The notes beneath the pieces were generated by a model. The model saw nothing but the letters and a program-made list of their open reading frames with translations. It made no database searches and had not been told where the DNA came from. Shown in pieces: positions 383 to 63,714 of a stretch of 64,000 nt of DNA. The translations under genes were made by a program, and so were the position numbers. This DNA comes from Escherichia phage JES2013, in the sequence record KC690136. One strand, written 5' to 3'. Each line of letters starts with the position of its first letter. Position 1 is the stretch's first letter.

Positions 383-733
383 CTAACCAGTTGTTGACAT
401 CCGAATAACCTCTTCTGGTGGCAAAACTTTGGAAAATGTGCATCTTTTACCTCTCCCTTGTGTGGATGTTTCAACCACCCCCGCACACTCTAAAGTTTTA
501 ACGCACGCTGCTGCTTTTGTTTTCTTTATCCCAACATCTGCTGCAATTTTCCTTGTGCTTGGTGTGAAGCGTGAATTTCCTCCAAGCTTATACCAGTTGT
601 GCAGGTAGCAGTATACAATCTTGTCATACAAGTCAAGAACAACAACCTCTCCAGTTGTGTCATTCAAAACTTTTGACATAGACAGTATTTCAAGGGGGAC
701 TTTAAGATATAGCAGCTTATCCCCATCTTTCAT
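383..733 (-). CDS. Hypothetical protein, possible helix-turn-helix DNA-binding protein
   Basis: 116-aa ORF; segment TRKIAADVGIKKTKAAACVKTLECAGVV looks HTH-like; no firm motif. Confidence 0.4.
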   Translation of the reverse strand: MKDGDKLLYLKVPLEILSMSKVLNDTTGEVVVLDLYDKIVYCYLHNWYKLGGNSRFTPSTRKIAADVGIKKTKAAACVKTLECAGVVETSTQGRGKRCTFSKVLPPEEVIRMSTTG

Positions 734-780
734 ATCTCCTGATTCTCCTTGTGTGGCAATTTTCTTTAAAATAGCAGGGA

Positions 781-1335
781 TTACTCCCCGCTGTCAATAG
801 CAAAACTCATTGCAATACGGTATGCTTCTTCTAATGGTAAGAGTCTCCCCCACACATCCCAACCGACATCAAGCTGCCTGCCAAACAACTGTTGTGTGGT
901 TCCGTGAGCATGACCGAACAGTTGGACTGATCCATGAGGCTTTCTGTTCCACTTTGCAAACTGGTAATGGCTCATACAGATCAAATTCTTGTTGTGGCGA
1001 AGCTCGTAATAATCTACAACCTCGTGATAGAACTCTTTCATAATTCTGACAGTCGTCCTTGTGTCATGGTTGCCACGAACAAGAATAATATGTCCGTTCA
1101 ACATATTTAGAATATCCGGGAGTAAGTTGTTGATATTCTTATCATTAGTGCACGCAATATCTCCCAAGTGGAACACAGTGTCTGCAGGTGACACAACAGA
1201 GTTCCACTCGGCGATGATTCCTGCATTCATACTGTCAAGATTGTGATCATACTGAGATCTGTGTTTTTGACATGAATCAAACTCCATGACCCGCTGGTGG
1301 AGAAAGTGTGTGTCGCTTGTTACAAAGTATTTCAT
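781..1335 (-). CDS. Calcineurin-like metallophosphoesterase (putative 2',3'-phosphatase partner of kinase)
   Basis: Motifs SDTHF, GDIA, GNHD, GHAHG; start refined to internal ATG (MKYFVTSDTHF) with GAGGAA SD; 7 nt downstream of kinase stop. Confidence 0.7.
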   Translation of the reverse strand: MKYFVTSDTHFLHQRVMEFDSCQKHRSQYDHNLDSMNAGIIAEWNSVVSPADTVFHLGDIACTNDKNINNLLPDILNMLNGHIILVRGNHDTRTTVRIMKEFYHEVVDYYELRHNKNLICMSHYQFAKWNRKPHGSVQLFGHAHGTTQQLFGRQLDVGWDVWGRLLPLEEAYRIAMSFAIDSGE

Positions 1336-1342
1336 ACATTCC

Positions 1343-1753
1343 TCATTTAAGTTTAATGCAGTTTTTAAGCTGGCGTTCCATACGATCCACAACCCTGTCT
1401 GGAACATCATGAATGCTTTTATTACCGTGGCGGTTTTCAACCACGATCACGGTATAACTATACCCATGACTGATTGCCATGTCAACATATTCCTGCACAT
1501 GTTTTTCTTTTGTAAACGTATTACTTACCACGATACGGTCGTATCCCATACGCATCATATCTTCTACGTTATCTTTGCACCATTTTGCTGCGAGTGTTAC
1601 TTTACTTGCATCCCAGTTGTAATTGCCGTCATCGTCATACCAGAACATGTCGTTCTCAAAATGTGGATACAGACCTTCTAAAGATAGCGCATTTGCCAGT
1701 GTTGATTTGCCAGACCCTGGCAGACCACGCACGATATATAGCATTTTAGACAT
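1343..1753 (-). CDS. P-loop polynucleotide kinase-like protein
   Basis: Walker A GLPGSGKST near N-terminus; start refined to ATG preceded by GGAGG; adjacent to phosphoesterase. Confidence 0.65.
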   Translation of the reverse strand: MSKMLYIVRGLPGSGKSTLANALSLEGLYPHFENDMFWYDDDGNYNWDASKVTLAAKWCKDNVEDMMRMGYDRIVVSNTFTKEKHVQEYVDMAISHGYSYTVIVVENRHGNKSIHDVPDRVVDRMERQLKNCIKLK

Positions 1754-1853
1754 AGCAATCCTCCGTTTTAATTTTAATGATAGTATACCTAACTGTTTTG
1801 TTAATTTCAAGTGTTGACACTAGGTTATTTGTGTGGCAGGATAGACTGACAAA

Positions 1854-2789
1854 ATGACAAATGAGGAACGTATGATGAAGTATTTTAATGCAGACGATCT
1901 AGTTGACAAAGGTCTTGTAACCAGCAGATATTACCCAGATCTTGGATTAAAGATTTATAAATATGCCAGAAAAGTATTTTACAACAATTTATGGCATTTG
2001 TCCCCTCGTTTGCTGGAGTGCCGAGGCATTGTTGTCGGTAATGAAGGAAATGTTGTGGCATGGCCCTTCACAAAAGTGTTTAACTTGGGAGAAAATCACA
2101 CCAACCTGCCTGACAATAAGCTTGTGACGGCGGTAGAGAAAAAGAACGGATTCCTCGGTGTGGTGTCATCTCATAAAGGTGAACTATTGTTCTCAACAAC
2201 CGGATCTCTTGATTCCCCATATTGTAACCTCGCAAAGGAAACCATCCGGGAGCAATGTGGTAATTTAGATCTTATCAAGAAGGTTATGGGCAATGAAAAC
2301 ATGACATTCATGTTTGAAATTTGTCACCCTTCAGATCCGCATATTGTTCAGGAAGATCATGGCGCATATTTGATAGGTTGCAGATATAATGATTCTGGAA
2401 TAATGCTACCAGAAGCAGCTTTAGATGGGATTGCCAAATACCTTGGCGCAAAACGTCCTCACACTGTGCGTGAAATTCCGTTCAGCTATGCAAAAGAATT
2501 GGCTGCAGAAACAAGAGGTGAAGGGTATATGATTCGTAAGCCTTACTACCCTTATGATCTGCAGCTGAAGATCAAGTCTCCATACTATCTGGCACGGAAG
2601 GCCGTAATGAGGGGTAAAGCTTGGAAGATTTGGGATGATGATATCTTTAAACGTGTTGACGAAGAGTTTTACGGCATGGTAAACTTCATTCGTAGCAATT
2701 ACACAGAAGATGTGTGGAACTGCCTACTGGAGCAGGAACGCAGGGAGATACTCGACCACTATTTCCACAACGAGGACTATATGCAATGA
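1854..2789 (+). CDS. rnlA: RNA ligase 1 (T4 RnlA-like)
   Basis: LECRGIVV and VFNLGEN match T4 RnlA LECRGIMF/FFNLNEN; nucleotidyltransferase motif I EKKNG; FMFEIC motif. Confidence 0.8.
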   Translation: MTNEERMMKYFNADDLVDKGLVTSRYYPDLGLKIYKYARKVFYNNLWHLSPRLLECRGIVVGNEGNVVAWPFTKVFNLGENHTNLPDNKLVTAVEKKNGFLGVVSSHKGELLFSTTGSLDSPYCNLAKETIREQCGNLDLIKKVMGNENMTFMFEICHPSDPHIVQEDHGAYLIGCRYNDSGIMLPEAALDGIAKYLGAKRPHTVREIPFSYAKELAAETRGEGYMIRKPYYPYDLQLKIKSPYYLARKAVMRGKAWKIWDDDIFKRVDEEFYGMVNFIRSNYTEDVWNCLLEQERREILDHYFHNEDYMQ

Positions 2790-3136
2790 AGAAGTTGATT
2801 GTGTGGCTGGATGATTTGAGAGATCCGTCAAATTATGGACTCCCAGACGCTGTTTGGCTGAAGAATTCCTCCGAGTTTATGGATTTTATTAACGATAAGG
2901 GAAAGCTCTACAGACGCGTTTCTGAGTGGCATATGGACAACGACCTAGGAGAAGTATTCGAAGGATATGATTGCCTATCCATGTTGGAGGAAAAATTTGT
3001 ATTCGGTAAGCCTCCCGTGGTTGACAACGTGAAGATTTTCGTACATACTTCTAATCCATCAGCGGCTCGTAAATTCATGCTTGCAGCTGACTCGTTTAAA
3101 AAGTTTGGAATAGAGATTAAACAAAACATCTACTGA
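2786..3136 (+). CDS. Hypothetical protein
   Basis: ATG overlaps rnlA stop (ATGA); 116 aa; no recognised motif. Confidence 0.45.
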   Translation: MKKLIVWLDDLRDPSNYGLPDAVWLKNSSEFMDFINDKGKLYRRVSEWHMDNDLGEVFEGYDCLSMLEEKFVFGKPPVVDNVKIFVHTSNPSAARKFMLAADSFKKFGIEIKQNIY

Positions 3137-3144
3137 GGACACTT

Positions 3145-3906
3145 ATGCGACGACTGATTATTATCTCCGGTGCTGGTTTGAGCGCTGAATCTGGTATTCC
3201 CACTTTCCGATCTGGTAGCACTGCAATGTGGGAGAATTTCAGCATCGATGAGGTGTGCAACATCCACACCTTTGCCAAGAACTACTATAAGGTGCATGAC
3301 TTTTACAATGCACGTCGCGTAGCTCTGGGCAGTGTTGATCCTAACCTTGCACATCTTCGGATCGCTGAGTGGTATTCCCGCTGGTCTGGTCGTGTGATCA
3401 ACCTTACCACCAATGTAGATGATTTGCTGGAGCGTGCTGGTGTAAAACATGAAGATATTTTACATGTCCACGGGTATTTGCCTGAAATCACCTACGAAGA
3501 TGCTGAAGGTAATGATGTAATTAAAAATATCGGATACACGGAGGTAGATACAGGCAAGTATACCTGGGTTAAGCCCAATGTAGTGTTCTTCGGTGAGGTT
3601 GCTCCTAAGTATACAGACATGTATGACCTGTTGACATCTCTCACAAGCAATGATATGGTGATCCTGGTAGGTTGTTCTAACACAGTTATTAATTTTAACT
3701 GGGAATTGTTTCCTGCTACTTGTAAAGGCACAAAACTGCTGATTGTAAACAAGTATGATTCGCAGAGTGCAGATGGAAGTGGCATTTCACGTAGCGACCT
3801 TTATCAATATGAGGATCGCGGGATCCCTGTATGGTTTAACGGTGCTGTTGACGCTTTCTCTGATAAAGTATTTATTGAAACTGTAGAAAACTTTATGGAA
3901 CTTTAA
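3145..3906 (+). CDS. Sir2 family (sirtuin-like) NAD-dependent protein
   Basis: GAGLSAESGIPTFR matches sirtuin GAGxS..GIPxFR NAD-binding signature; TTNVDDL matches TQNID motif. Confidence 0.75.
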   Translation: MRRLIIISGAGLSAESGIPTFRSGSTAMWENFSIDEVCNIHTFAKNYYKVHDFYNARRVALGSVDPNLAHLRIAEWYSRWSGRVINLTTNVDDLLERAGVKHEDILHVHGYLPEITYEDAEGNDVIKNIGYTEVDTGKYTWVKPNVVFFGEVAPKYTDMYDLLTSLTSNDMVILVGCSNTVINFNWELFPATCKGTKLLIVNKYDSQSADGSGISRSDLYQYEDRGIPVWFNGAVDAFSDKVFIETVENFMEL

Positions 3907-3919
3907 AAGGAGACCTTTA

Positions 3920-4633
3920 ATGCTGAATACTAAACTGATCGACAACCTGGAAAAACTGTCTCAGCCTGAAAACTACCTTTGGTCTGCCAACTGGGTGGAA
4001 AACTGGAACCGTGTGGCAGCTAAGGTGAAAAAATCATACACACCATTCGAATTACAGCTTAGCTTCATTGAGGAAGAGTTCAATGAAGTTTTGGAAGAGC
4101 TGGAGAAAGGTGATGGTGGAGATCACTTGCTAAAAGAGGCCTGCGATCTTCATGTTGTCACAAGTTATGCCGCTTATCTTGTTAATGACAATCACGAAAA
4201 GTGGTCAAACCTGTTTGATAATCCACGAGGTATTAAGTTCAAGATTGGTGAGTTCTATGATACACTGATCGCTGCGAAAAACACCTCTAAGCAAAGAGCG
4301 TCTGCTTACCGCTTAGCAGAGTTGTCAACAGCTTTGCTGTTCCAGCTTCGCGGCGATGTGTGCGGGATGATGCGTAAGGTTCTCAAATCGAATGACAGCA
4401 AGTTTGCACGGGTCAACCATCTACGGTATTCACACGGTGCCAGTGCAGATATGCCTGCTGAACAACTCATCGAGTTGGAGATTAAAGATCTTGAGCGACG
4501 CTTTGATGGTCGATATGAAGGTTTTGTTGCTAAGGAAGAATTCTACAACGGTAATAAAGTTATCATATTCCTTGACAGTAAAGGTAAGATCATGAAGCCT
4601 TCAAGCTTCAAGGATGTAACAGAGTATATTTAA
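3920..4633 (+). CDS. MazG-like nucleoside triphosphate pyrophosphohydrolase domain protein
   Basis: EEEFNEVLEELEKGDGGDHLLKEACDL resembles MazG EExxE...E.GD...DL metal-binding helices. Confidence 0.5.
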   Translation: MLNTKLIDNLEKLSQPENYLWSANWVENWNRVAAKVKKSYTPFELQLSFIEEEFNEVLEELEKGDGGDHLLKEACDLHVVTSYAAYLVNDNHEKWSNLFDNPRGIKFKIGEFYDTLIAAKNTSKQRASAYRLAELSTALLFQLRGDVCGMMRKVLKSNDSKFARVNHLRYSHGASADMPAEQLIELEIKDLERRFDGRYEGFVAKEEFYNGNKVIIFLDSKGKIMKPSSFKDVTEYI

Positions 4634-32888: not shown

Positions 32889-33206
32889 GTGCAAATTGAA
32901 ATCACTGGCAACGTAGAGATCACTGAAGGTATGGTGTCTTTCATTTCCCACAAAATGTCTAAGCTGGAGCGTTTGCACCCCTCTGCCAACTATGCACGTG
33001 TGAGTGTAAAAGTTGAAAATGATCACCAGGAAGTCATGGCGTTCATTTTTGACACTTCCGGAAAAGAAGTTATTGCCAAAGCTAAAGGCAGTAACGCTTA
33101 CGAGGCAACTGACCGTATGGTAGATGTTGCAGCACGTCAGTTGGCTAAATGCGGTGGAAAGAAAGGTAAAGGGAAAGGCAAAGTAAAGATTGACTTTGGA
33201 GAATGA
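32889..33206 (+). CDS. hpf: Ribosome hibernation promoting factor / RaiA (YfiA) family protein
   Basis: MQIEITGNVEITEGM...KLE...VSVKVE...AKAKGSNAYEATDRMVDVAARQL parallels E. coli HPF MQLNITGNNVEITEAL...; GTG start; lysine/glycine-rich tail. Confidence 0.8.
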   Translation: MQIEITGNVEITEGMVSFISHKMSKLERLHPSANYARVSVKVENDHQEVMAFIFDTSGKEVIAKAKGSNAYEATDRMVDVAARQLAKCGGKKGKGKGKVKIDFGE

Positions 33207-40162: not shown

Positions 40163-40449
40163 TTAATTGACATGCCTGACTGTTTACGCTGTCACTATTC
40201 GCGCTATTACTATTCACTCCCTTTACTGTTCACGCTCTTACTGTTTACATGCTTAATGGTTTACATGCTTAATAGACTGCATGTCTAATAGTTTACATAG
40301 CTAACTGTTCACATACTTATCATTTACATGATTGACTGTTTACACAGAGATGATAAGCCATGACATTCGTTTGCATGACAATAATTAACAAGATAACAAT
40401 TGACAAGCTAACAGCCAACAAGCTGACAATTAACTTGTTTACAATAGAT

Positions 40450-40615
40450 GACATAATATAAAAGCAGGGCAACTATTAGAAGATCTATAGTTGCCTTGCT
40501 TGTTATGTCATGATTAACTAAATACAAGGCAACTATGATCTGATTAATAGTTTGCAAACAAACTATCACGGGGGTGATGGTTACTGCTTTTATATTATGT
40601 CGCGACTCCGTCGCG
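40450..40615. repeat. Nested inverted repeats: 18-bp arms GACATAATATAAAAGCAG / CTGCTTTTATATTATGTC around palindrome GGCAACTAT-N10-ATAGTTGCC, plus CGCGAC-tcc-GTCGCG
   Basis: Arms at 40450-40467 and 40584-40601 are exact reverse complements; inner palindrome 40468-40495; GGCAACTAT also recurs at about 40517 and 40634. Confidence 0.6.
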
Positions 40616-41295
40616 CCATGCCATTCGTTTGCATAGTTGCCTTATTGTTACAGATAAAATAATTGTATTGTTAATTATTTCTTATCTTTCTATTAGTCAT
40701 CTAATGATTCCAGTCAATATAGTAATGTACAGTAAACATTAGACGACTAAAGATTTATCTGCTTATAATAACTTACCGTGACAATTTCGGACTGTTTACG
40801 AAAAATGTTGGCACCTAAGCTGATTTATGTTATGCAGTTTACACGAATAATTATTTTATGCAGGTATTGACTATTCCATTATTCTATGGTTGGAATAAAT
40901 ACTTAGCAGACTATAGAATGGTGAGCGTACGTAAATTCTGAGATCTGGCGGCTATAGTTATACTCGATTTTTCACGTAGAGCACGCTTTTGTGGTTATGT
41001 AAGTGTATGACTTATAAAGATTTTTAGTTGTTGACAAGACACTGAAGATATGCATCAGGTTAAATTTTGTGCAATAGCTGCATTACGTGCAATTTTGGAA
41101 GGAAAAACGGGTAAAAATAGCCCTGCTACCACACAATGAAAAGTTATGCAATAGTTATTTTACATGTATATTTGTACAGTGTGTGGGGTTGATGGCTCGT
41201 CAATTATTCCACTTGCCAGGTAGGGCCGTTTATGGTAGGGGGAAGATCAGACAAAAAGAAAGGGGCCTAAGCCCCTTGATAATTCAGTTAAAAAA

Positions 41296-41715
41296 TTATA
41301 ATGATTCGTATATTTCAAAAATCCGATTTGCCAGGTCGTTACGGTACCGGAATTTTTCATCACGTTTGATCATAAGATCTTTATAGCCGTACTCTTTAAG
41401 CACTTCATTAACTTTATGGCGGCACACCTTCATATTATCCTGAGCGTCACCAATAAACCTGTTGCTATGGTGCATGGCTTTAATTTCTTCTTCCAGGACC
41501 AGGGCAACTATGCGGACCGGATCAAGCTGATAGGCGGTAACATCAATGCGGCATTGTAAACGGCTTTTTACGTCTGCCACCGGATATACTGCAACCTCTT
41601 CCCCGTCAACATTGACAATAATTAGTTTACCATCGATTTCGAATCCTTTCGCCGCCGGACCGTGACAAAAAGCGTTATCAAAGCTATATGCCGGATTATT
41701 AGATTTAATGTTCAT
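41296..41715 (-). CDS. Hypothetical protein
   Basis: 139-aa ORF; last gene of leftward block. Confidence 0.5.
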   Translation of the reverse strand: MNIKSNNPAYSFDNAFCHGPAAKGFEIDGKLIIVNVDGEEVAVYPVADVKSRLQCRIDVTAYQLDPVRIVALVLEEEIKAMHHSNRFIGDAQDNMKVCRHKVNEVLKEYGYKDLMIKRDEKFRYRNDLANRIFEIYESL

Positions 41716-41860
41716 GGTGTTTTTACCTCTTAGTTAATTTTCTTACAACTTCCCTTTAAAAAAGAATATAGCAAAACTGCCGATCCTTGTCAATAAGGAT
41801 AGCATAATTTTTATGTGATCAAGGGGCTTTATTGCCCCCCTGACCATGTAACTTGTTGTA

Positions 41861-42124
41861 TTATTTGTTATTCATCCAGTTTTCCCAAGCTGCCTGATAA
41901 TCTGCTTCACTGCGGCGGATCTCTTCTTGCTCTTCAAGTCGGATCTCTTCTTCCAGGTACCCCAGGATATCGGCTTTTTTGGTCTGGCGTAACATCCAAT
42001 CATCTTTTTTACGGGTAAAGATCTTATATGCTTTCTCGCAAACCTCTTTTTTGCTACCTTTTTGGACTTCAAGAACTTTGTAGGCCATGTACTGAACTAG
42101 TTTGAGCTGATCAAGACGTTTCAT
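41861..42124 (-). CDS. Hypothetical protein
   Basis: 87-aa charged ORF. Confidence 0.45.
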   Translation of the reverse strand: MKRLDQLKLVQYMAYKVLEVQKGSKKEVCEKAYKIFTRKKDDWMLRQTKKADILGYLEEEIRLEEQEEIRRSEADYQAAWENWMNNK

Positions 42125-42184
42125 GATGTTTACCTCTTTATGCGGTTCTGATTAGTGGGCCTTTTGGCCCGTGTCATTATCTTA

Positions 42185-42457
42185 TTACTTATGGCGGCAG
42201 AATTCAAGCGTTTTTAATTGATAATCTTCCTCAGCCTGGAGTACGACCGCCTCGATCATTTCGTTGGCATTGTTAAAGCCATAACCTTTAGCGAAATCAT
42301 CCGCGCCACCTTCGTGATCATGTTCTGCGTTCATCGCTTCCACAAAATGGAATTCCAAATTGTTGAGGTAGGGGCTTGATGTTCCGTCCTCTTTTTCGAT
42401 GAGATCCCAAATAGCATTAAAACGTGATTCTACTTCTTGATTAATCCAGCTTGACAC
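42185..42457 (-). CDS. Hypothetical acidic protein
   Basis: 90-aa ORF. Confidence 0.5.
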   Translation of the reverse strand: MSSWINQEVESRFNAIWDLIEKEDGTSSPYLNNLEFHFVEAMNAEHDHEGGADDFAKGYGFNNANEMIEAVVLQAEEDYQLKTLEFCRHK

Positions 42458-42668
42458 AGTGTTTTCCTCTCTTCTGGTTGTTGTGTGGGCACTTTTGCCC
42501 CTTCAAGATAAATGTTACCCCACCCCATGGCAGATGTCAACGGTTTTTATAGTTCTTATATGACAGGCAGGCCCGGTGATTGTCTCCCCCCGTCGCCAGG
42601 TGCCTGCCGTGAAACAAGTATAACAAAAAACAGGACCATTGCAAGCCCTGTTTTGTAGTTTATAAATA

Positions 42669-42860
42669 TTATATTTTTTCGCCTATGTAGTCCGGTCGGT
42701 TTTTCTCTGTCATGCGCTTTAGCAATTCTTGCATGTTGCTTATGGCTTGTAGTGTATCCCCTTCCAGGCTTGAATCGACATAATCAGGATCGTCTATGAC
42801 CTTTCTATGATTATGATAACGCAGTACCGCCAATACCTTTCTGACTTGTTCGATATTCAT
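42669..42860 (-). CDS. Hypothetical protein
   Basis: 63-aa ORF. Confidence 0.45.
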   Translation of the reverse strand: MNIEQVRKVLAVLRYHNHRKVIDDPDYVDSSLEGDTLQAISNMQELLKRMTEKNRPDYIGEKI

Positions 42861-43009
42861 TTTTACCGCTCTTTAAAACAAGGTGCCAACCGTTTCCAAT
42901 AGATCACTGACTGCCAGGACAATACCGATCAGCACATATCTAACCATAAGGGGAAAGAGCGCCAATATTGCCACCACAATCCCCAAGGTGATAATTATCT
43001 TTCTCATGG

Positions 43010-52869: not shown

Positions 52870-53101
52870 CCTCCTTTGGGAACTTGAACTCTGGCATAGC
52901 CATATACGCTACAACAGGGTTGTGATCAAAGTAGAACTGACCGTTAATTATCCCGGTTTTACTCACATAGTTACCAGATCCTGCAAGAACAACCTCGCAA
53001 GCTCCGAAATCTACATTGCCATCCTCATCAGCCATGGCTACGATATACTTTCCTAGAGGCATGTTTTTAACGCCGTCTACAAATGTCCACCCTTTGTTCA
53101 T
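52856..53101 (-). CDS. Hypothetical protein
   Basis: 81-aa ORF. Confidence 0.45.
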   Translation of the reverse strand: MNKGWTFVDGVKNMPLGKYIVAMADEDGNVDFGACEVVLAGSGNYVSKTGIINGQFYFDHNPVVAYMAMPEFKFPKEGADV

Positions 53102-53121
53102 ACTTTATCTCCTGCACTTTC

Positions 53122-53454
53122 TTAAGGTAACCAGTAAACAATCTCGCCTTTCAGCTTCATGTCGTTTCCAACATAAATTTCCCAGCCATCCATCTTAGCA
53201 ACTGTAGGCCCAAAGTCATCCGCACCCCTTACCTCTTTCCAGGCTCCGTAGTCAGGTTGCCAGATATAGAATCCACCTTCTTTGTCCCATGCTCCGTACA
53301 CTACGTTTAACAGGTTTCCCATTGCAACAATGGTGGGCCGTGGGAATAATACATCTACAGATGCGCCACAATTTCGGGTATCTTTTAAGTTGCAATCCCA
53401 AAAGATGTCTGCCAGTGTGGCGGCGATAGCTTTACGTCTTTCCAATGTTACCAT
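53122..53454 (-). CDS. Hypothetical protein
   Basis: 110-aa ORF. Confidence 0.45.
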   Translation of the reverse strand: MVTLERRKAIAATLADIFWDCNLKDTRNCGASVDVLFPRPTIVAMGNLLNVVYGAWDKEGGFYIWQPDYGAWKEVRGADDFGPTVAKMDGWEIYVGNDMKLKGEIVYWLP

Positions 53455-53464
53455 GGCACGATAC

Positions 53465-53656
53465 TCACTTGTTGTTAATAAGTTCTAAAACTTTCTGTCT
53501 TACTTTGTCAAGGTCTGTTGATTCAAAAACTGTGCGATATCCCCAACTTTGCCCATAGGAGTGACTGCAATCTCCGTAGCACCATTGCTCAATTTGATAG
53601 TATTCAAGGAAGGGGTGCTGTCTAACTATGATGCCATCCCGGTTAAAAATTACCAT
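53465..53656 (-). CDS. Hypothetical protein
   Basis: 63-aa ORF. Confidence 0.4.
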   Translation of the reverse strand: MVIFNRDGIIVRQHPFLEYYQIEQWCYGDCSHSYGQSWGYRTVFESTDLDKVRQKVLELINNK

Positions 53657-53719
53657 AATACGTCGCTCTCTGTTAGTCTGTGCGTATATTATACACTGTA
53701 GTTTTCAGATGTCAATCTT

Positions 53720-53914
53720 TTACAGGTTACTCCAGTATACTCGGCATTTACATTTCGGGCAATGAGGCTCTTTTATGTAATAACCATCAGTCTTTGGAAC
53801 ACTTTTTGGTGCAGTTTTAAGATTGTACCGAGTAAAACACCGGAAGCAGGTTACCTCTCCAACCTGTTGATCGTTTATCCACTCGCCAGAGTAAAGCTCT
53901 CTCTTGTTTCTCAT
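53720..53914 (-). CDS. Small zinc-ribbon-like protein
   Basis: CFRCF...CPKCKC pattern; start refined to ATG after GGGAGAG. Confidence 0.45.
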   Translation of the reverse strand: MRNKRELYSGEWINDQQVGEVTCFRCFTRYNLKTAPKSVPKTDGYYIKEPHCPKCKCRVYWSNL

Positions 53915-53940
53915 AATTCTCTCCCAAATCCTCTGCAATC

Positions 53941-54111
53941 TTATACCAAAATCTCCAGCCAGAAAGCACACGGGAACACTTTGATGATTGAATCTTTACC
54001 TGGTTCAGCAGTTCTTTTTCCGTAGGGTAGGTAGAAATACCCTCCTGCAGATTCGAACACAGCCCCTTCGGTTGTATCTATCACAGCCAGAATTAAGATT
54101 TTAGTCTCCAT
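53941..54111 (-). CDS. Hypothetical small protein (56 aa)
   Basis: sORF METKILILAVIDTTEGAVFESAGG...; SD GAGGGAG; below ORF-track cut-off. Confidence 0.3.
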   Translation of the reverse strand: METKILILAVIDTTEGAVFESAGGYFYLPYGKRTAEPGKDSIIKVFPCAFWLEILV

Positions 54112-54164
54112 AGTGCTCCCTCTCTCAATCGTTGTGGTGACTATACCATCTCAAAAACCCGCTG

Positions 54165-54662
54165 TCAACACTTTTTGTACTCCACCACGATAATATTCAT
54201 ATCAAAAGTGGCAAGGTTAATAACGTCCTCTACGTGCTCCCACTTCAAACCGCCTATGCCGCACCCGATCTTAGGGATGTAGAATGGTAAAGTCGATCCA
54301 CTGAATACCTCATTGACTAGCTCAAAGCCTTTCAGGATTGAGAAATATTCAGCATTAGGTCCTGGGTAGAACTGAGTATACAGATTGATTCCGTAGACAA
54401 TACCTCTCGGAGATAAGTGCTCCCATCGGGAGAACGCACCCAGTTTACTTAGGCAACCGTGTCTGGTCTCTTTGTCAGCTGCCAATGCTTGAGGGAACTC
54501 ACGGGCAATCTGTTTTGCTATCCCCTTGCCCATTGTGTGGAAGCAGTTACAACCGTGGATCAGGTGACCAGCACCGCTCTTAAAAAGGGAGATTAAATCT
54601 CCCTCTACAGTATCAATAATCACGGTATGCCAGCTCCTCTTCCGCAATTTCAAAAAACTCAT
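54165..54662 (-). CDS. Macro domain protein (ADP-ribose binding/processing)
   Basis: VIIDTVEGDL...GHLIHGCNCFHTMGKGIAKQI and IPKIGCGIGGL match macro-domain motifs; start uncertain. Confidence 0.65.
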   Translation of the reverse strand: MSFLKLRKRSWHTVIIDTVEGDLISLFKSGAGHLIHGCNCFHTMGKGIAKQIAREFPQALAADKETRHGCLSKLGAFSRWEHLSPRGIVYGINLYTQFYPGPNAEYFSILKGFELVNEVFSGSTLPFYIPKIGCGIGGLKWEHVEDVINLATFDMNIIVVEYKKC

Positions 54663-55038
54663 CCCAACCTTGTGGCATATTTGAGTTGCCGAAGTGGCTT
54701 TCATAGTAAAGGTTCTCACCACTTGGGAGATAGAAATCTGTTACCTCGTAGAATCCACAATCGTCGCACTCGCCTTCTTCAAACTTGGCCTCAACCTTAA
54801 TACCGAGGAAGGTGAAAAGTTTATGAATATCTTCAGTTTCGAACTCCCAGTGAATGTTGTTTTCCGCATCGGTGTAGAACTGGATCAGCAGACCATTGTC
54901 CAGTTTACCAAAATACTCTGTGAAGTAACTTCCTTCCCAGAAATCTCTATGACAAATAATATCCATGCGTTTGCCCATAATAATGGTGTGAGCGTTTTGG
55001 GCATCGTCGCGAATCAGTTTTGGCATTTCATAGATCAT
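54613..55038 (-). CDS. Hypothetical acidic protein
   Basis: 141-aa ORF; 3' end overlaps macro-domain gene. Confidence 0.45.
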   Translation of the reverse strand: MIYEMPKLIRDDAQNAHTIIMGKRMDIICHRDFWEGSYFTEYFGKLDNGLLIQFYTDAENNIHWEFETEDIHKLFTFLGIKVEAKFEEGECDDCGFYEVTDFYLPSGENLYYESHFGNSNMPQGWDEFFEIAEEELAYRDY

Positions 55039-55106
55039 CTTAGTTCTCCGGGTTCAACAGGTGGTGGTGCTACAGGAAGATCATAAAACATAGCTATCAC
55101 AGTCTC

Positions 55107-55304
55107 TTACACAGGAATTGCTTCAAACAGGCCGTTATCTATACCGTCCTTCAGATAGAGATTATATTCTATATCGGTATCTGTATAAAGGGCAGCATCC
55201 AGCATTCTATCTGTGAGTCCATCCATTGGGTGGAGAAACCACCACCCACGCCAGTCAAAGTAACAGCCTGGTGCATCTTCTCTTACACGGATTCGATAAA
55301 TCAT
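55107..55304 (-). CDS. Hypothetical protein
   Basis: 65-aa ORF; AGGAGG SD. Confidence 0.4.
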   Translation of the reverse strand: MIYRIRVREDAPGCYFDWRGWWFLHPMDGLTDRMLDAALYTDTDIEYNLYLKDGIDNGLFEAIPV

Positions 55305-55400
55305 GGGCAGTGGCCTCCTGTTAGTTATACATCCCAGTTTTCTTCGTTCATCGCGTCCTCCCGTTATATGAAGTTATAATTGCACACCTTTCAACCTGTG

Positions 55401-55817
55401 TCAACAGAAAACTTCAACAAATTCTTCCACAGTTTTAATGTCGTGGGAAAAAGGTTTACGGCTATAACGGGCAATAGCACTATCAACCACCGCCCGGTAC
55501 TCCAAATCTTCAGAATATTTCATGAAGCATTGCAGCGTCTCTGGGCAGATAGCTAAATAGCTCCACCACCCCTCTTCAGATTGGTAGTCGAATCCCATAC
55601 TCTCCAACCATGAAGCATATACTCCTGCACCCTCTAGCCAGTGGGTATTTTCATCAAGAAATTTATTCACCGACATGTGTGCTTCCAGGCACTCGTCAAG
55701 CTCTTTTCCGTTAACCAGCCATGCACTGACTGTGGCGCATCCGAGGTCTACAGATTGAGTTGACAGGTTGTATTGGTCATAGTTCTCAGGTTTAACAATG
55801 ATATCTTCTAATGTCAT
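55401..55817 (-). CDS. Hypothetical acidic protein
   Basis: 138-aa ORF. Confidence 0.45.
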   Translation of the reverse strand: MTLEDIIVKPENYDQYNLSTQSVDLGCATVSAWLVNGKELDECLEAHMSVNKFLDENTHWLEGAGVYASWLESMGFDYQSEEGWWSYLAICPETLQCFMKYSEDLEYRAVVDSAIARYSRKPFSHDIKTVEEFVEVFC

Positions 55818-55879
55818 TTTTCAGATCTCCTTATACAAAAATGCCCCACCCTTTCGGGCAGGGCTATGTCAGTTAGGTG

Positions 55880-56503
55880 CTAAAAGTATTCATAGAGGTA
55901 TCCATCGGGAGCTGGAATTTTTTCATGAATGTAGTAATCAACACATATTCCGGTTTCTCTTCTACAAGAATTGTGGGATACCCATTCTTTAAGAACGTTG
56001 CCATTCATGTCCAGCCTCCTTACATTTTTACACCGTCTACCGCTGGTGCTTCTATGCAACAGAATATCCTCCGTCTGCTTGTCTTTATTTTCTCCCCAGG
56101 TCGTTAAACGGATATTATCAAAAGAGTACCCTTTGAAATCATCTATCCTGTCACAAGAAGGCTTTTTCCTTTTGTCGTATCCGCTGGCTACCCACTGGTC
56201 ATACAACTCTTTGTAACCGTTCAGGTATAGCCACTCCTTAAACTCTTTTTTGGTGTAAGTCGGAGGAGGGTGACCTCTTTGCTTGCTGTTGCACTTTTGA
56301 GCCTTGTACAACACGCGTATTACACCTTTTTCTGAAGAGTCGTGGGAAAACTGGTCAGCCTCCCTACTGGCCTTCTTACAACACTCTTTGCACTTATTAA
56401 GATGACCGTCAGACATCTTTGGGTGTTTGTAGAACTCGGAGAGGTTTTTCACCTCTCCGCACTTGATGCATCTCTTACAATGCGTAGATTCTACTTTTGC
56501 CAT
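55880..56503 (-). CDS. Putative free-standing homing endonuclease (HNH-like)
   Basis: N-terminal CKRCIKCG...CKEC; [23 protein letters not shown] resembles HNH_3-type motif; overlaps 3' end of SSB-like gene. Confidence 0.45.
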
Positions 56504-60606: not shown

Positions 60607-60977
60607 TGATCGGTCTCCTTCTTGTTAAGTCTGAATACTGCAATAATAGCATTCCCAAGGTGCAGTGTCAAATCATTTCCAAGATACCACAACATTCCAC
60701 GGTCATCTTTAATGAAAGGGTAACAATCTGGTGCCTTCCAGACATTGTACACTTTCCCAACCTGAAAGAAATCAGGCCCTGTTGGGATTTTGGTGCCAGG
60801 CCACACTTGGGATACCTGAACACACTCCACCTGCATAATAACAGGAATAGTCATGGATGTAAATGTTTTTGTTGGTTCTACTACCATAAAAGTCTCCTCT
60901 TTGCTTAACAGCACCTCCCTGTGCTGATAGTTTACATTAGTGACAATCACCCCAGTTACGACCACACAAGTATTCAC
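60603..60977 (-). CDS. Hypothetical protein (possible family D relative)
   Basis: DDRGMLWYLGNDLTLHLGNAI; 3' of DNA polymerase gene. Confidence 0.45.
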   Translation of the reverse strand: MNTCVVVTGVIVTNVNYQHREVLLSKEETFMVVEPTKTFTSMTIPVIMQVECVQVSQVWPGTKIPTGPDFFQVGKVYNVWKAPDCYPFIKDDRGMLWYLGNDLTLHLGNAIIAVFRLNKKETDQ

Positions 60978-63714
60978 CTGTGATCTGGAACGGGACTCCC
61001 ATCATTTTAGAAGCTTGCCAGAAGCAATGTACCACCATCTCGCCCACAGGGCTCCAGATAAGTTCAAGCTTTCCGTCATCGTTCAGGATAGGATCGTACA
61101 CCGTGTTTCCGTCTCTGTCAACCACTTCGTTTCCGTTTTCATCCTTGCGTGCCTTTTTGTACTTATGACCGTCGAACACATGAAGTTTGGCCTCCTGCTC
61201 TGCCTTAAATGCTTCCAATTCTTCAATTGTGTCGAAGGTGTACACAGTCTTATACTTCGGTGTGTCAGGTACTTGAAGCTGATATTCGTCATGGTAATAG
61301 ATAATACGACGAACACCTTCATCGTACCACCCACGCTTCACCATTTGGTGGTGCATAAGTATCCCAACTAAGTCACACAGCGATGCACCACCATTCTGTT
61401 GGTATGCATTAAGTAAAGAGTGTTTAGATCGGGTCCAGATGGCATGACCATCAAAAGAGTAGATAAACTTCTTACCCGTTGCTTCCCAGAATTTCTCCAG
61501 ATCCTCTTTACGCCCCTTAAGACCAGGGTTGGCATCCCAAAGTGCATCGATCACCCTTTGTCCCAACTCTGGAGAGATGTCCAGCATATCTGCAACTTTA
61601 TCTTTTTGTGCCCCGTACATAACCCCATACGTGATAGGTTTACCGTCGTTACGAGACACCTCTCTGCCTGCTACTTTTGTATATGCCTCAGCATTGTTTT
61701 GGTGTGCGTCCCCGTTACTTACAACATCATAATACAAGCCGTTGTCGAACTCAAAGGCACCCCAAGCCCCGATAAGCTGCTCTAAGTTGGACCCGTCAAT
61801 ACCGATCTCAAAGTATCCTGGAGGAACACCCCACAAGCTACGCATCTCTTTACCCATAACCACTTTAGGAGAGGGTTTAGGCATGTTTGCACAAATACTG
61901 TGTTTCTGTCTGGAAGTGTTTGTTAATCCAGAGCTTTTAGCAGGAAGCTTATGGTCAATCTTCAAACGTGGGTGATTAAGAAGACCAGTGTCAACCTTAT
62001 CCTCCTTGATTGGATCAAGTACCGATCTGCGGTTTCGCAATGATAACCATAAGACGATATCTTTAGCCATCTCTCCGTTCAATTTTTCAAGATTCGGACA
62101 CAGGTGTCCAAACGTATCTTTCAGTTGCGGAGAAGTAATAAGTGCCCTAGCTTTTCTACGTATTTTCCCGAATACTTCCTTTTTAATCCTTTCGGAGTTA
62201 GGAAAGCTTCGGAACTTGTGCACGGTTGTCTGGAACTTAGCATCAGTTTTGTTCCAGAAGTTGATAATTAGGTCACAATACTCTGACTCTAAAAGCTCGT
62301 CCATATATGCATATACTCGTGCATCAACATCTGCATCAGGTAGAGCTTTCTTCTTGCTGTCTTTAGTTACATCCTTAGTTCTCCACATTGTCGGAAGCCA
62401 ACCAGCACTGATCAGGTATCGCTTAATGTCGTCCTGATTGCTGATTTTCATAGGTATCTTGCAGTCCGGCATTCGCTTCTGCTGTAGATCACTTATTGCC
62501 TGATCCATTAGCTCTTTAGGTAAAGGTTGTGGTGTGGAGGTGCCCTTAATATAACCTCTCAAGAAATCAGCCATCTTGTCGGGGTCTTTGCAGCCCATCT
62601 CTTCGCACCATTTTATCCCCATCTTGCTGACATCTCCTGTGGAGGTAAATGCTCGCTTAGGCGGGGCTTTGAACTCTAAAGCGCTCATGTCTACAGGATA
62701 GCCAAGCTTATCTTTTAACCATTTCCAACCATTATTGGAGATTGTCCCATCTTGGTTAAACGGCTTTTCAGGGAACTTGGGCCGCTGAGACATTGACAGC
62801 TCTTTTAAAGGTAGTTGTGGTTCAACACGATCAGCTATTTCTTTCATCCACGCATCACAACGGTCACGTAAAGCAATAGCTCCATCTATGTCAAAATACA
62901 CACCCTGACGGGCCTGCAGCTCCATCAGGAAGTGCTGCAGCATGCCTCGGCGTAGTGCGTTCTTCCAGGTGATCTTCTTGAACCCTTTCGGCTTCTCTTT
63001 GGCAGGATCGTACATAAAGTTCTGCATGTCAGATTTGCCGTAGAATACACCTTTTGATTCCGCTACCAGCTCTTTCCAGAGCAGCTCCTGGATGATAACG
63101 TCCTCGAATACACGATCCACATACTTCCACAATGGAAGATCGCGCCAGTCATCAATTTGAACTTTCTGGTTACCAAGGGCGTAGCCCCATGCCATAAGGC
63201 CGTGAGGACCAACAGGCTGCATTTTCTTAGTAACCGGGTTGAATACAGAGTCCGGACAACCTTTTGGTAAAGGGCGATCAGGCCACAAGATTCGGCTCAT
63301 CGCCAACGTATCAAACAGATTAACCTGGTGGTCGTTGATAGTCCCCATGCATTTAGGATCACGGAACATATCAAAATGAATACCGGATAATCTTTCCATC
63401 AGCATAAAGTCATAACTGTAGCAGTTATGGCAGTTCAAAGCTGTTGGTGACCAGTCGGAATTTCCTGTAAGCCAACCTTCCAACTCCGAAAAATCTGCTA
63501 TGCGAACTTCAAAATCTTTATAAAGAGTTTTCTTTGCCAGAATAAAGTTCTTAGCCTTCTCTATATCCTCCTCGGAGTAGTGTGTGCGGTCATTTAGAGG
63601 AAGGAACAGCATAAAACGGTTCTTATTCAGCTCTTTAAACAGGCCGCAATGATAATAAAGATCTGGGTCTTCCAAGAGCCCGGAGGCCTCCAGATCGAAG
63701 CACCAATTACTCAT
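60937..63714 (-). CDS. DNA polymerase, family A (T7 gp5-like) with N-terminal 3'-5' exonuclease
   Basis: N-terminus CFDLEASGLLE...HCG parallels T7 gp5; motif B-like KPITYGVMYGAQ; motif C-like YYHDEYQ; C-terminus GRNWGDCH vs T7 GPNWAICH. Confidence 0.9.
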   Translation of the reverse strand: MSNWCFDLEASGLLEDPDLYYHCGLFKELNKNRFMLFLPLNDRTHYSEEDIEKAKNFILAKKTLYKDFEVRIADFSELEGWLTGNSDWSPTALNCHNCYSYDFMLMERLSGIHFDMFRDPKCMGTINDHQVNLFDTLAMSRILWPDRPLPKGCPDSVFNPVTKKMQPVGPHGLMAWGYALGNQKVQIDDWRDLPLWKYVDRVFEDVIIQELLWKELVAESKGVFYGKSDMQNFMYDPAKEKPKGFKKITWKNALRRGMLQHFLMELQARQGVYFDIDGAIALRDRCDAWMKEIADRVEPQLPLKELSMSQRPKFPEKPFNQDGTISNNGWKWLKDKLGYPVDMSALEFKAPPKRAFTSTGDVSKMGIKWCEEMGCKDPDKMADFLRGYIKGTSTPQPLPKELMDQAISDLQQKRMPDCKIPMKISNQDDIKRYLISAGWLPTMWRTKDVTKDSKKKALPDADVDARVYAYMDELLESEYCDLIINFWNKTDAKFQTTVHKFRSFPNSERIKKEVFGKIRRKARALITSPQLKDTFGHLCPNLEKLNGEMAKDIVLWLSLRNRRSVLDPIKEDKVDTGLLNHPRLKIDHKLPAKSSGLTNTSRQKHSICANMPKPSPKVVMGKEMRSLWGVPPGYFEIGIDGSNLEQLIGAWGAFEFDNGLYYDVVSNGDAHQNNAEAYTKVAGREVSRNDGKPITYGVMYGAQKDKVADMLDISPELGQRVIDALWDANPGLKGRKEDLEKFWEATGKKFIYSFDGHAIWTRSKHSLLNAYQQNGGASLCDLVGILMHHQMVKRGWYDEGVRRIIYYHDEYQLQVPDTPKYKTVYTFDTIEELEAFKAEQEAKLHVFDGHKYKKARKDENGNEVVDRDGNTVYDPILNDDGKLELIWSPVGEMVVHCFWQASKMMGVPFQITGEYLCGRNWGDCH

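Follow-up and report, generated by a model that had tools for sequence, protein, structure and literature searches.

A Gln-Type Macrodomain Protein of Escherichia Phage JES2013 and Its Putative Role in Counter-Defence against DarTG2

The stretch of 64,000 nucleotides analysed in this work (hereafter, the window) derives from Escherichia phage JES2013 (sequence record KC690136) and harbors, in its leftward block, an open reading frame which a preliminary description, made from the sequence alone, assigned to the macro-domain proteins, i.e., proteins binding or hydrolyzing ADP-ribose. The same description proposed that this gene, together with the Sir2 gene of the window, might form a split NAD-metabolite module. 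The question raised by this locus is on which ADP-ribosylated molecule the encoded protein might act: DNA modified by a bacterial defence system, a small derivative of ADP-ribose, or a product of the Sir2 enzyme.

Extent of the Gene and Macrodomain Identity

The ORF list and the corresponding translation include a minus-strand ORF spanning positions 54165..54662, with an ATG start and 165 amino acids, which is the extent assigned to the gene in the preliminary description; the longest version of the same frame begins at the GTG in position 54722 (minus strand). The presence of the ORF stands, but its start had to be revised. The comparison of four related phages revealed that another GTG, in position 54623, and the GAGGAG Shine–Dalgarno sequence located 10 nt 5' of it (54634..54639, minus strand) are invariant, whereas the ATG in position 54662 is not kept across relatives, being replaced by CTG in rV5_ev168. 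Furthermore, the close homologs are all 150–155 residues long and start with MII..., with T4 Tk.4 starting with MIVKY... at the same position; the N-terminal extension of 13 codons is absent from every aligned homolog, and the length of the macro gene in the GenBank annotation of the relatives is mostly 459 nt. On the basis of these data, we took the gene as 54165..54623 (minus strand), most likely coding, from a GTG start, for a protein of 152 amino acids (plus the stop codon). The codons of the extension (54624..54662, minus strand), which are embedded in the upstream ORF, are probably not translated within the macro protein. The start of the macro gene overlaps the stop of this upstream ORF (54613..55038, minus strand) by 11 nt.

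The search against the Macro family of Pfam (PF01661) returned a significant match, with 28 bits versus a gathering cut-off of 22 and an E-value of 2.3e-6. Moreover, the protein matches PHROG 335 with an E-value of 1.5e-58, and a family profile obtained from 50 sequences matches macrodomains of the PDB with E-values ranging from 1e-17 to 1e-14. The AlphaFold2 model, for which an alignment without the T4 sequence was used, has a pLDDT of 96.4 and a pTM of 0.91; the three-layer alpha/beta macro fold was found together with the conserved Asn, the G-x-G loop, and the glycine-rich diphosphate loop. These data confirmed that the macrodomain match is far above chance, in agreement with the assignment made in the preliminary description. 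Taken together, the Pfam, PHROG, and PDB profile matches and the predicted structure assign the 152-residue protein to the standalone macrodomains of the ALC1-like (TARG1/DarG/Poa1p) class, of which it is the "Gln-type" variant.

In Escherichia phage EPFV3, a protein of identical sequence has been deposited under the name "macro domain protein"; the labels used in other relatives are "phosphatase", "O-acetyl-ADP-ribose deacetylase", or "hypothetical", the first of which is also the name given to the family by both PHROG and Pharokka. The gene is part of a phage family that had been catalogued before and whose characterisation is recent.

The two motifs on which the first assignment had been based, GHLIHGCNCFHTMGKGIAKQI and IPKIGCGIGGL, are both present and, according to the profile and PDB alignments, do represent elements of the ADP-ribose pocket. 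The former (54507..54569, minus strand) comprises strand 2 and the G-x-G loop of the pocket, with the stretch H-G-C-N ... G-x-G, and the latter (54246..54278, minus strand) is the diphosphate-binding glycine loop, P-x-I-G-C-G-I-G-G. The residues H23-G24-C25-N26 (54546..54557, minus strand) correspond to H24-V25-C26-N27 of SCO6735 in the alignment to 5e3b, while in the stretch N80-L-Y-T-Q84 (54372..54386, minus strand) Q84 takes the place of the catalytic Lys. The alignment of 92 family sequences revealed that N26, G34, A36, and P117 are invariant (92/92), that N80 and G120 are each shared by 91 sequences, that H23, G24, Y82, and Q84 are each shared by 90, and that T83 is present in 88. All the invariant residues of the family (H-G-C-N-C ... 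N-L-Y-T-Q ... P-x-I-G-x-G) are harbored by the 152-residue protein of the window.

Regarding the position of Q84, it aligns with the catalytic Lys of DarG (K80 in the Thermus aquaticus protein, and also that of Mycobacterium tuberculosis DarG), of TARG1 (K84), and of PhiKZ gp104; it also aligns with a Gln in BT1257 and in SCO6735 (Q85). By counting the residues along the 5e3b alignment, H24, V25, N27, Q85, G126, and G128 of SCO6735 are equivalent to H23, G24, N26, Q84, G120, and G122 of the window protein, respectively. A counterpart of TARG1 Asp125 is absent, since this residue aligns to G124; the K84/D125 dyad of human TARG1/OARD1 is, in other words, replaced by Q84 and G124. The same G124 is aligned with F152 of yeast Poa1p, in a sequence alignment covering the N- and C-terminal parts only.

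Phylogenetic Distribution and Gene Organization

The megablast search carried out with positions 53000..56000 retrieved 118 phage records, 114 of which with a coverage of at least 80%; all of them are Vequintavirus (rV5-like) E. coli myoviruses, sharing 90–99% identity with the query. At the protein level, the distribution is much wider: tblastn retrieved homologs from 2,716 phage records, among which T4-likes, Felixounavirus, Pakpunavirus, phi92-likes, and Ackermannviridae are represented. The window protein shares 39% identity with T4 Tk.4 over the full length (E 4e-40, 119 bits) and 67% with the Tk.4 of RB49; a metagenomic homolog, P0013, shares 59% identity, and its gene lies between vs and tk in the order regB-vs-[macro]-tk, corresponding to the tk.4 position. 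The closer relatives of the window protein (RB49 and P0013) are, hence, encoded in the tk.4 locus. According to these comparisons, the window protein can be assigned as an ortholog of T4 Tk.4/AdfM (PHROG 335, Tk.4 family). A neighbour-joining tree also places it next to T4 Tk.4, with weak support since the tree is star-like and un-bootstrapped. Both proteins are standalone macrodomains of about 150 residues, whose genes are part of a block of small accessory genes, and the invariant residues, NLYTQ(F)xPGPN among them, are common to both. However, T4 belongs to the Straboviridae and the window phage to the Vequintavirinae; in addition, the macro gene of the window has neither vs nor tk as a neighbor, and the gene upstream of it is unrelated to vs.

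The leftward block that includes the macro gene also harbors the DNA polymerase gene (60937..63714), and the macro gene is surrounded by numerous small ORFs with no assigned function. It belongs to an apparent three-gene unit (55304..54165, minus strand), together with a first ORF of 65 amino acids (55107..55304, minus strand; PHROG 9903) and the aforementioned upstream ORF (54613..55038; 141 amino acids, PHROG 8157), both with unknown function. A terminator-like hairpin (55864..55843, minus strand) lies upstream of the unit, which is preceded by a sigma-70-like promoter (TTGACA-17-AATTAT with TG; 55376..55404, minus strand) recognized by consensus match only. Consensus matches also correspond to a second candidate promoter (TTGACA-17-TATAGT, 11/12, with TG; 54140..54168, minus strand), which overlaps the stop codon of the macro gene and would start the next unit, and to a third one matching the consensus perfectly (12/12; 53715..53688, minus strand). 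In the 6 kb considered, 18 promoter-like sites were detected versus 10.0 ± 2.9 in the shuffled sequences, an excess that would fit an early transcription by the host polymerase. Since the small ORFs are preceded by strong sigma-70 consensus promoters, the macro gene is probably expressed early. No match was retrieved when the window was scanned for tRNAs and Rfam families.

As for the translationally coupled ORF upstream, we considered whether it might represent the DarT-binding portion of a split DarG, or else a homolog of vs, and both possibilities were rejected. It did not retrieve any sequence match from PADLOC, Pfam, or the PDB, it has no similarity to T4 Vs, and it does not adjoin the macro gene in other phages.

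Candidate Substrates of the Gln-Type Active Site

The DarT2 toxin attaches ADP-ribose to the thymidines of single-stranded phage DNA, and this modification blocks replication. By analogy with the T4 protein, we consider it reasonably probable that the macro protein counters bacterial DarTG2 by stripping the ADP-ribose off phage DNA. For T4 Tk.4, the nearest relative studied by experiment, a transposon screen performed on a host with DarTG2 yielded the gene as its only significant hit, and a clean knockout of it sensitises the phage to DarTG2 (genetic data from a preprint, bioRxiv 10.1101/2025.11.20.689424); it is because of this sensitisation that the gene has been named adfM (anti-DarT factor macrodomain). 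Moreover, T4 lacking both adfA and adfN is still resistant to DarTG2 (PMC11825919).

A Gln-type macrodomain active on DNA has been described in SCO6735, which, without the Lys/Asp pair, removes ADPr linked to thymidine in ssDNA and confers protection against DarT; its Q85A variant is inactive and the N27S one almost inactive, and the mechanism proposed involves a backbone-positioned water molecule, the distal ribose being oriented by Gln85 (PMC9411070; PMC12879935) and the conserved macrodomain Asn holding the Gln (PMC9411070). Starting from the fold, the family membership, and the residue conservation observed in this work, and extrapolating the substrate and the Gln-assisted mechanism (the latter from SCO6735), we can depict the following scheme: ADP-ribose would be bound through the H-G-C-N/G-x-G and P-x-I-G-C-G-I-G-G loops; Q84, kept in place by N26, would position the distal ribose; a water molecule would then cleave the C1''-N3(thymine) bond, restoring unmodified DNA and releasing ADP-ribose.

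The resemblance with SCO6735 (PDB 5E3B) concerns the Gln in the catalytic-Lys position and the equivalents of its His24, Asn27, and Gly128 (H23, N26, Q84, and G122 in the window protein), within an overall identity of 21–23% for both SCO6735 and BT1257 of Bacteroides thetaiotaomicron (2FG1/2AFC). Differently from the window protein, whose corresponding loop is F-Y-P-G-P-N with no Lys, SCO6735 has a longer, basic, and mobile loop with Lys89, credited with DNA processivity; furthermore, it is the product of a cellular, DNA-damage-inducible gene of Streptomyces coelicolor and not of a phage gene. Given the identity of 39% with T4 Tk.4, the substrate preference could differ also from that of the T4 protein.

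A DarG antitoxin was also considered, DarG being the sole match from both PADLOC and NCBIfam, limited to its macro part; the score against NF048014 (the DarG equivalog of NCBIfam) is 47.4 bits versus a cut-off of 250, over model positions 3–139 of 338. This candidate was rejected: the window protein has no catalytic Lys (P-T-K), no C-terminal DarT-binding domain, and no adjacent darT, the neighbors of the macro gene being small ORFs without any Pfam or PADLOC match. In contrast, the DarG macrodomains of T. aquaticus (5M31/5M3E) and M. tuberculosis (5M3I) carry Lys in F-P-T-K in the position of Q84, and DarG, besides adjoining darT, ends with a domain that binds DarT. The catalytic Lys in F-P-T-K also distinguishes PhiKZ gp104, a Lys-type protein likewise called AdfM, which in vitro frees DNA of the ADP-ribose added by DarT2 (PMC13309987) and shares about 24% identity with the window protein.

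The name "phosphatase" given to the family by PHROG and Pharokka points to a different reaction, that is, the removal of the 1''-phosphate from ADPR-1''-phosphate (as in Adpp or Poa1p), instead of or besides the de-ADP-ribosylation of DNA; the substrate would, in this case, derive from RES-domain defences (aRES), from RES toxins, or from RNA repair, as an end product of the 2'-phosphotransferase type. Such an activity, which we regard as rather unlikely for the window protein, is that of the NARP1-AP macro protein of Vibrio phage Gary (Adpp, gp137), which converts ADPR-1P into ADPR and is needed against aRES (bioRxiv 10.64898/2026.01.28.702374). The Adpp homolog Brizo gp167, encoded between Adps and Namat, shares 35% identity with the window protein (E 8e-22, 73 bits) and 33% with T4 Tk.4, and the tblastn search with the Brizo protein retrieved 2,710 phage records versus the 2,716 obtained with the window protein, with a similar genus breakdown. 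Since Brizo gp167 is similar to both proteins and recovers a nearly equal number of records, Tk.4/AdfM and Adpp can be regarded as branches of one family; the Adpp proteins (Gary gp137 and Brizo gp167) also carry the Gln in the position of Q84 and share the H-x-C-N-C, N-x-Y-x-Q, and glycine-loop motifs. In addition, both reactions would displace a leaving group from C1'' in the distal ribose, and so one site might plausibly carry out both. However, the function of Adpp is to supply ADPR to NARP1, without which the product of the phosphatase is not usable for NAD+ reconstitution. Probing with the Brizo sequences did not retrieve any homolog of Adps or Namat, which flank Adpp, from either the window or the complete PQ014731.1 genome, which was joined from five loci and is 98.4% identical to the window over the 3-kb region compared (best E-values, 0.31 and 1.2). 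The phage lineage is without NARP1, and this makes an Adpp role less likely here. Further differences concern the score, which is 119 bits with T4 Tk.4 versus 73 with the Adpp-type protein, and the sequence around the Gln, in that the window protein lacks the seven-residue insertion found after the Gln in the Adpp type and carries T83 where the latter has Gly. Moreover, T4, for which NARP1 has not been reported either, uses its copy against DarTG2. The absence of NARP1, the higher score with T4 Tk.4, the sharing of T83 and of an uninterrupted loop, and the position in the tree are the reasons for which we favor the action against DarT2. Much less room is left for a non-catalytic binder or sponge of ADP-ribose, or for a hydrolase of protein- or RNA-linked ADP-ribose (acting, for example, against an mRNA ADP-ribosylation of the CmdTAC type or by sequestering immune signals derived from ADPr), which we consider highly improbable. 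Some macrodomains do bind ADPr only and, according to Iyer et al., phage macros mostly target small ADPr derivatives (PMC9503650), while SCO6735 also removes protein-linked ADPr (PMC9411070). Nevertheless, the conservation of all the catalytic residues of SCO6735 in the window protein argues against a mere binder, no member of the family is known to target RNA or immune signals, and the two members with experimental support are T4 Tk.4, against DarTG2 (genetic), and Adpp, on ADPR-1P (biochemical).

The last possibility is that the macrodomain is a functional partner of Sir2, either hydrolyzing the O-acetyl-ADP-ribose that a Sir2 deacetylase would make or reversing or cleaning up Sir2 ADP-ribosylation, as in a split module similar to SirTM-macro. 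The Sir2 gene (3145..3906, plus strand; PF02146, E 7e-28) and the macro gene do occur in one genome, and sirtuin–macro pairs are known from bacteria and some actinophages (PMC9503650). Moreover, a KptA/Tpt1-like sirtuin of the V5 type would yield ADPr>P and then ADPR-1''P, and the family includes a proven ADPR-1''P phosphatase. However, some 50 kb separate the two genes, which lie on opposite strands and belong to distinct transcription blocks, whereas in the SirTM-type two-gene systems sirtuin and macro genes adjoin in one operon. The Sir2 gene sits in a compact RNA-repair cluster of its own, together with the genes for a calcineurin-like phosphoesterase (781..1440, minus strand), a kinase (1343..1810, minus strand), an Rnl1-type RNA ligase (1854..2789), a protein with the cREC cyclic-phosphate-processing domain (2714..3136), and a MazG-like protein (3920..4633). 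This neighborhood of the phage V5 sirtuin was described by Iyer et al., who proposed a KptA-like role for the V5-type sirtuin and stated explicitly that it has no coupled Macro gene (PMC9503650). In addition, in evenly spread samples of the two tblastn match lists (as distinct from a genome-by-genome table), T4-likes were present in the macro list only and T5-likes in the Sir2 list only; large phage clades, that is, carry one of the two genes without the other. Finally, in the closer relatives of the window protein, the macro gene is housed in the vs-tk locus. The distance, the opposite blocks, the separate RNA-repair cluster, and the clades with only one of the genes do not bear out the split NAD-metabolite module of the preliminary description, and a partnership of this kind appears very unlikely. 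A further scenario is that the Gln macrodomain of the Tk.4 type is a bifunctional "C1''-leaving-group" hydrolase, with one active site working on both the thymidine-ADP-ribose of phage DNA and ADPR-1''P, the second activity finishing the KptA-like Sir2 pathway of the rV5-like phages. We consider this scenario unlikely; if it were true, the link with Sir2 would be metabolically real (from Sir2 to ADPr>P, to ADPR-1''P, and to the macro protein) even though the genes are unlinked.

Implications for the rV5-like Phages and the Tk.4 Family

In view of the action against DarT2 that we favor, a gene that more than 100 Vequintavirus genomes carry under the labels "phosphatase", "macro domain protein", or "hypothetical" may be annotated as a probable anti-DarTG2 factor, orthologous to AdfM. 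An annotation of the AdfM type bears on how the host range is predicted for the rV5-like phages, which are employed against E. coli O157 in therapy and biocontrol. For Bas54, a phage of the Vequintavirinae, a HIDEN-SEQ transposon library is already available.

From a more general viewpoint, the Tk.4 family of phages carries a Gln where DarG and TARG1 use a catalytic Lys. Since one and the same family is tied to both anti-DarT2 and anti-aRES roles, the specificity, or the bifunctionality, of its members becomes directly testable.

Genes and promoter-like sites around the macro gene

The macro gene, which encodes a macrodomain protein on the minus strand, is preceded on its upstream side by two small minus-strand ORFs identified by their PHROG matches, both of them Vequintavirus-specific: PHROG 8157 (54613-55038) and PHROG 9903 (55107-55304). 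Both appear to be co-transcribed with the macro gene, and the former overlaps its start by 11 nt. Searches of Pfam, PADLOC and PDB sequences with the ORF at 54613-55038 did not retrieve any match, and in other phages this ORF shows no linkage to macro genes. Another small minus-strand ORF (53720-53971), located two genes downstream from the macro gene, matches PF23903, a zinc-binding domain of phages, at E 1.6e-22.

In the leftward block, the minus-strand genes that include the macro gene, short groups of genes are separated by near-perfect matches to the sigma-70 consensus. The candidate promoters, all on the minus strand, are located at 53686-53715 (12/12 consensus positions), 54140-54168 (11/12) and 55376-55404 (10/12); the scan of 6 kb returned 18 promoter-like sites versus 10 expected.

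Sixteen GenBank records labeled "Campylobacter phage" (MG0656xx), all without annotation, share 95-98% identity with window positions 53000-56000, a region of an E. coli Vequintavirus; their host label looks doubtful.

The sirtuin RNA-repair neighbourhood and other regions of the window

A complete V5-type sirtuin RNA-repair neighbourhood spans positions 383-4633. It embeds, on the minus strand, genes for an HTH protein (383..733), a calcineurin-like phosphoesterase (781..1440) and an AAA_33/zeta-like kinase (1343..1810) and, on the plus strand, those for an Rnl1-type RNA ligase (1854..2789), a cREC protein (2714..3136), Sir2 (3145..3906) and a MazG-like protein (3920..4633). The Sir2 sequence of the window retains the GAGxS, TTNVDD and HVHG motifs, and no CxxC zinc-ribbon pairs are present in it.

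The product of a plus-strand ORF at 32889-33206 contains S30AE/RaiA (PF02482, E 7e-12), a domain of ribosome hibernation factors; in the relative VB-EcoM-WM, genes for RaiA (ribosome-associated translation inhibitor) and a sigma-54 modulation factor are annotated in what is apparently the corresponding stretch.

The rightward and leftward gene blocks meet at about 40300-42900, a junction containing an ORF-poor stretch that is left unannotated in relatives. According to the HIDEN-SEQ preprint, an intergenic region of about 2 kb between oppositely transcribed genes of Bas54 (Vequintavirinae) tolerates zero transposon insertions.

A macro homolog on a metagenomic contig

A macro homolog 45% identical to the window protein is encoded on the metagenomic contig SRR33375160_1766 (L012:3274-5737). 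A Thg1-like gene overlaps its start, NADAR is encoded two genes downstream of the homolog, and Rnl2 and PTH2 are close by. This locus is an island that combines macro with NADAR, with possible anti-DarT2 plus anti-DarT1 functions, or else one of RNA repair.
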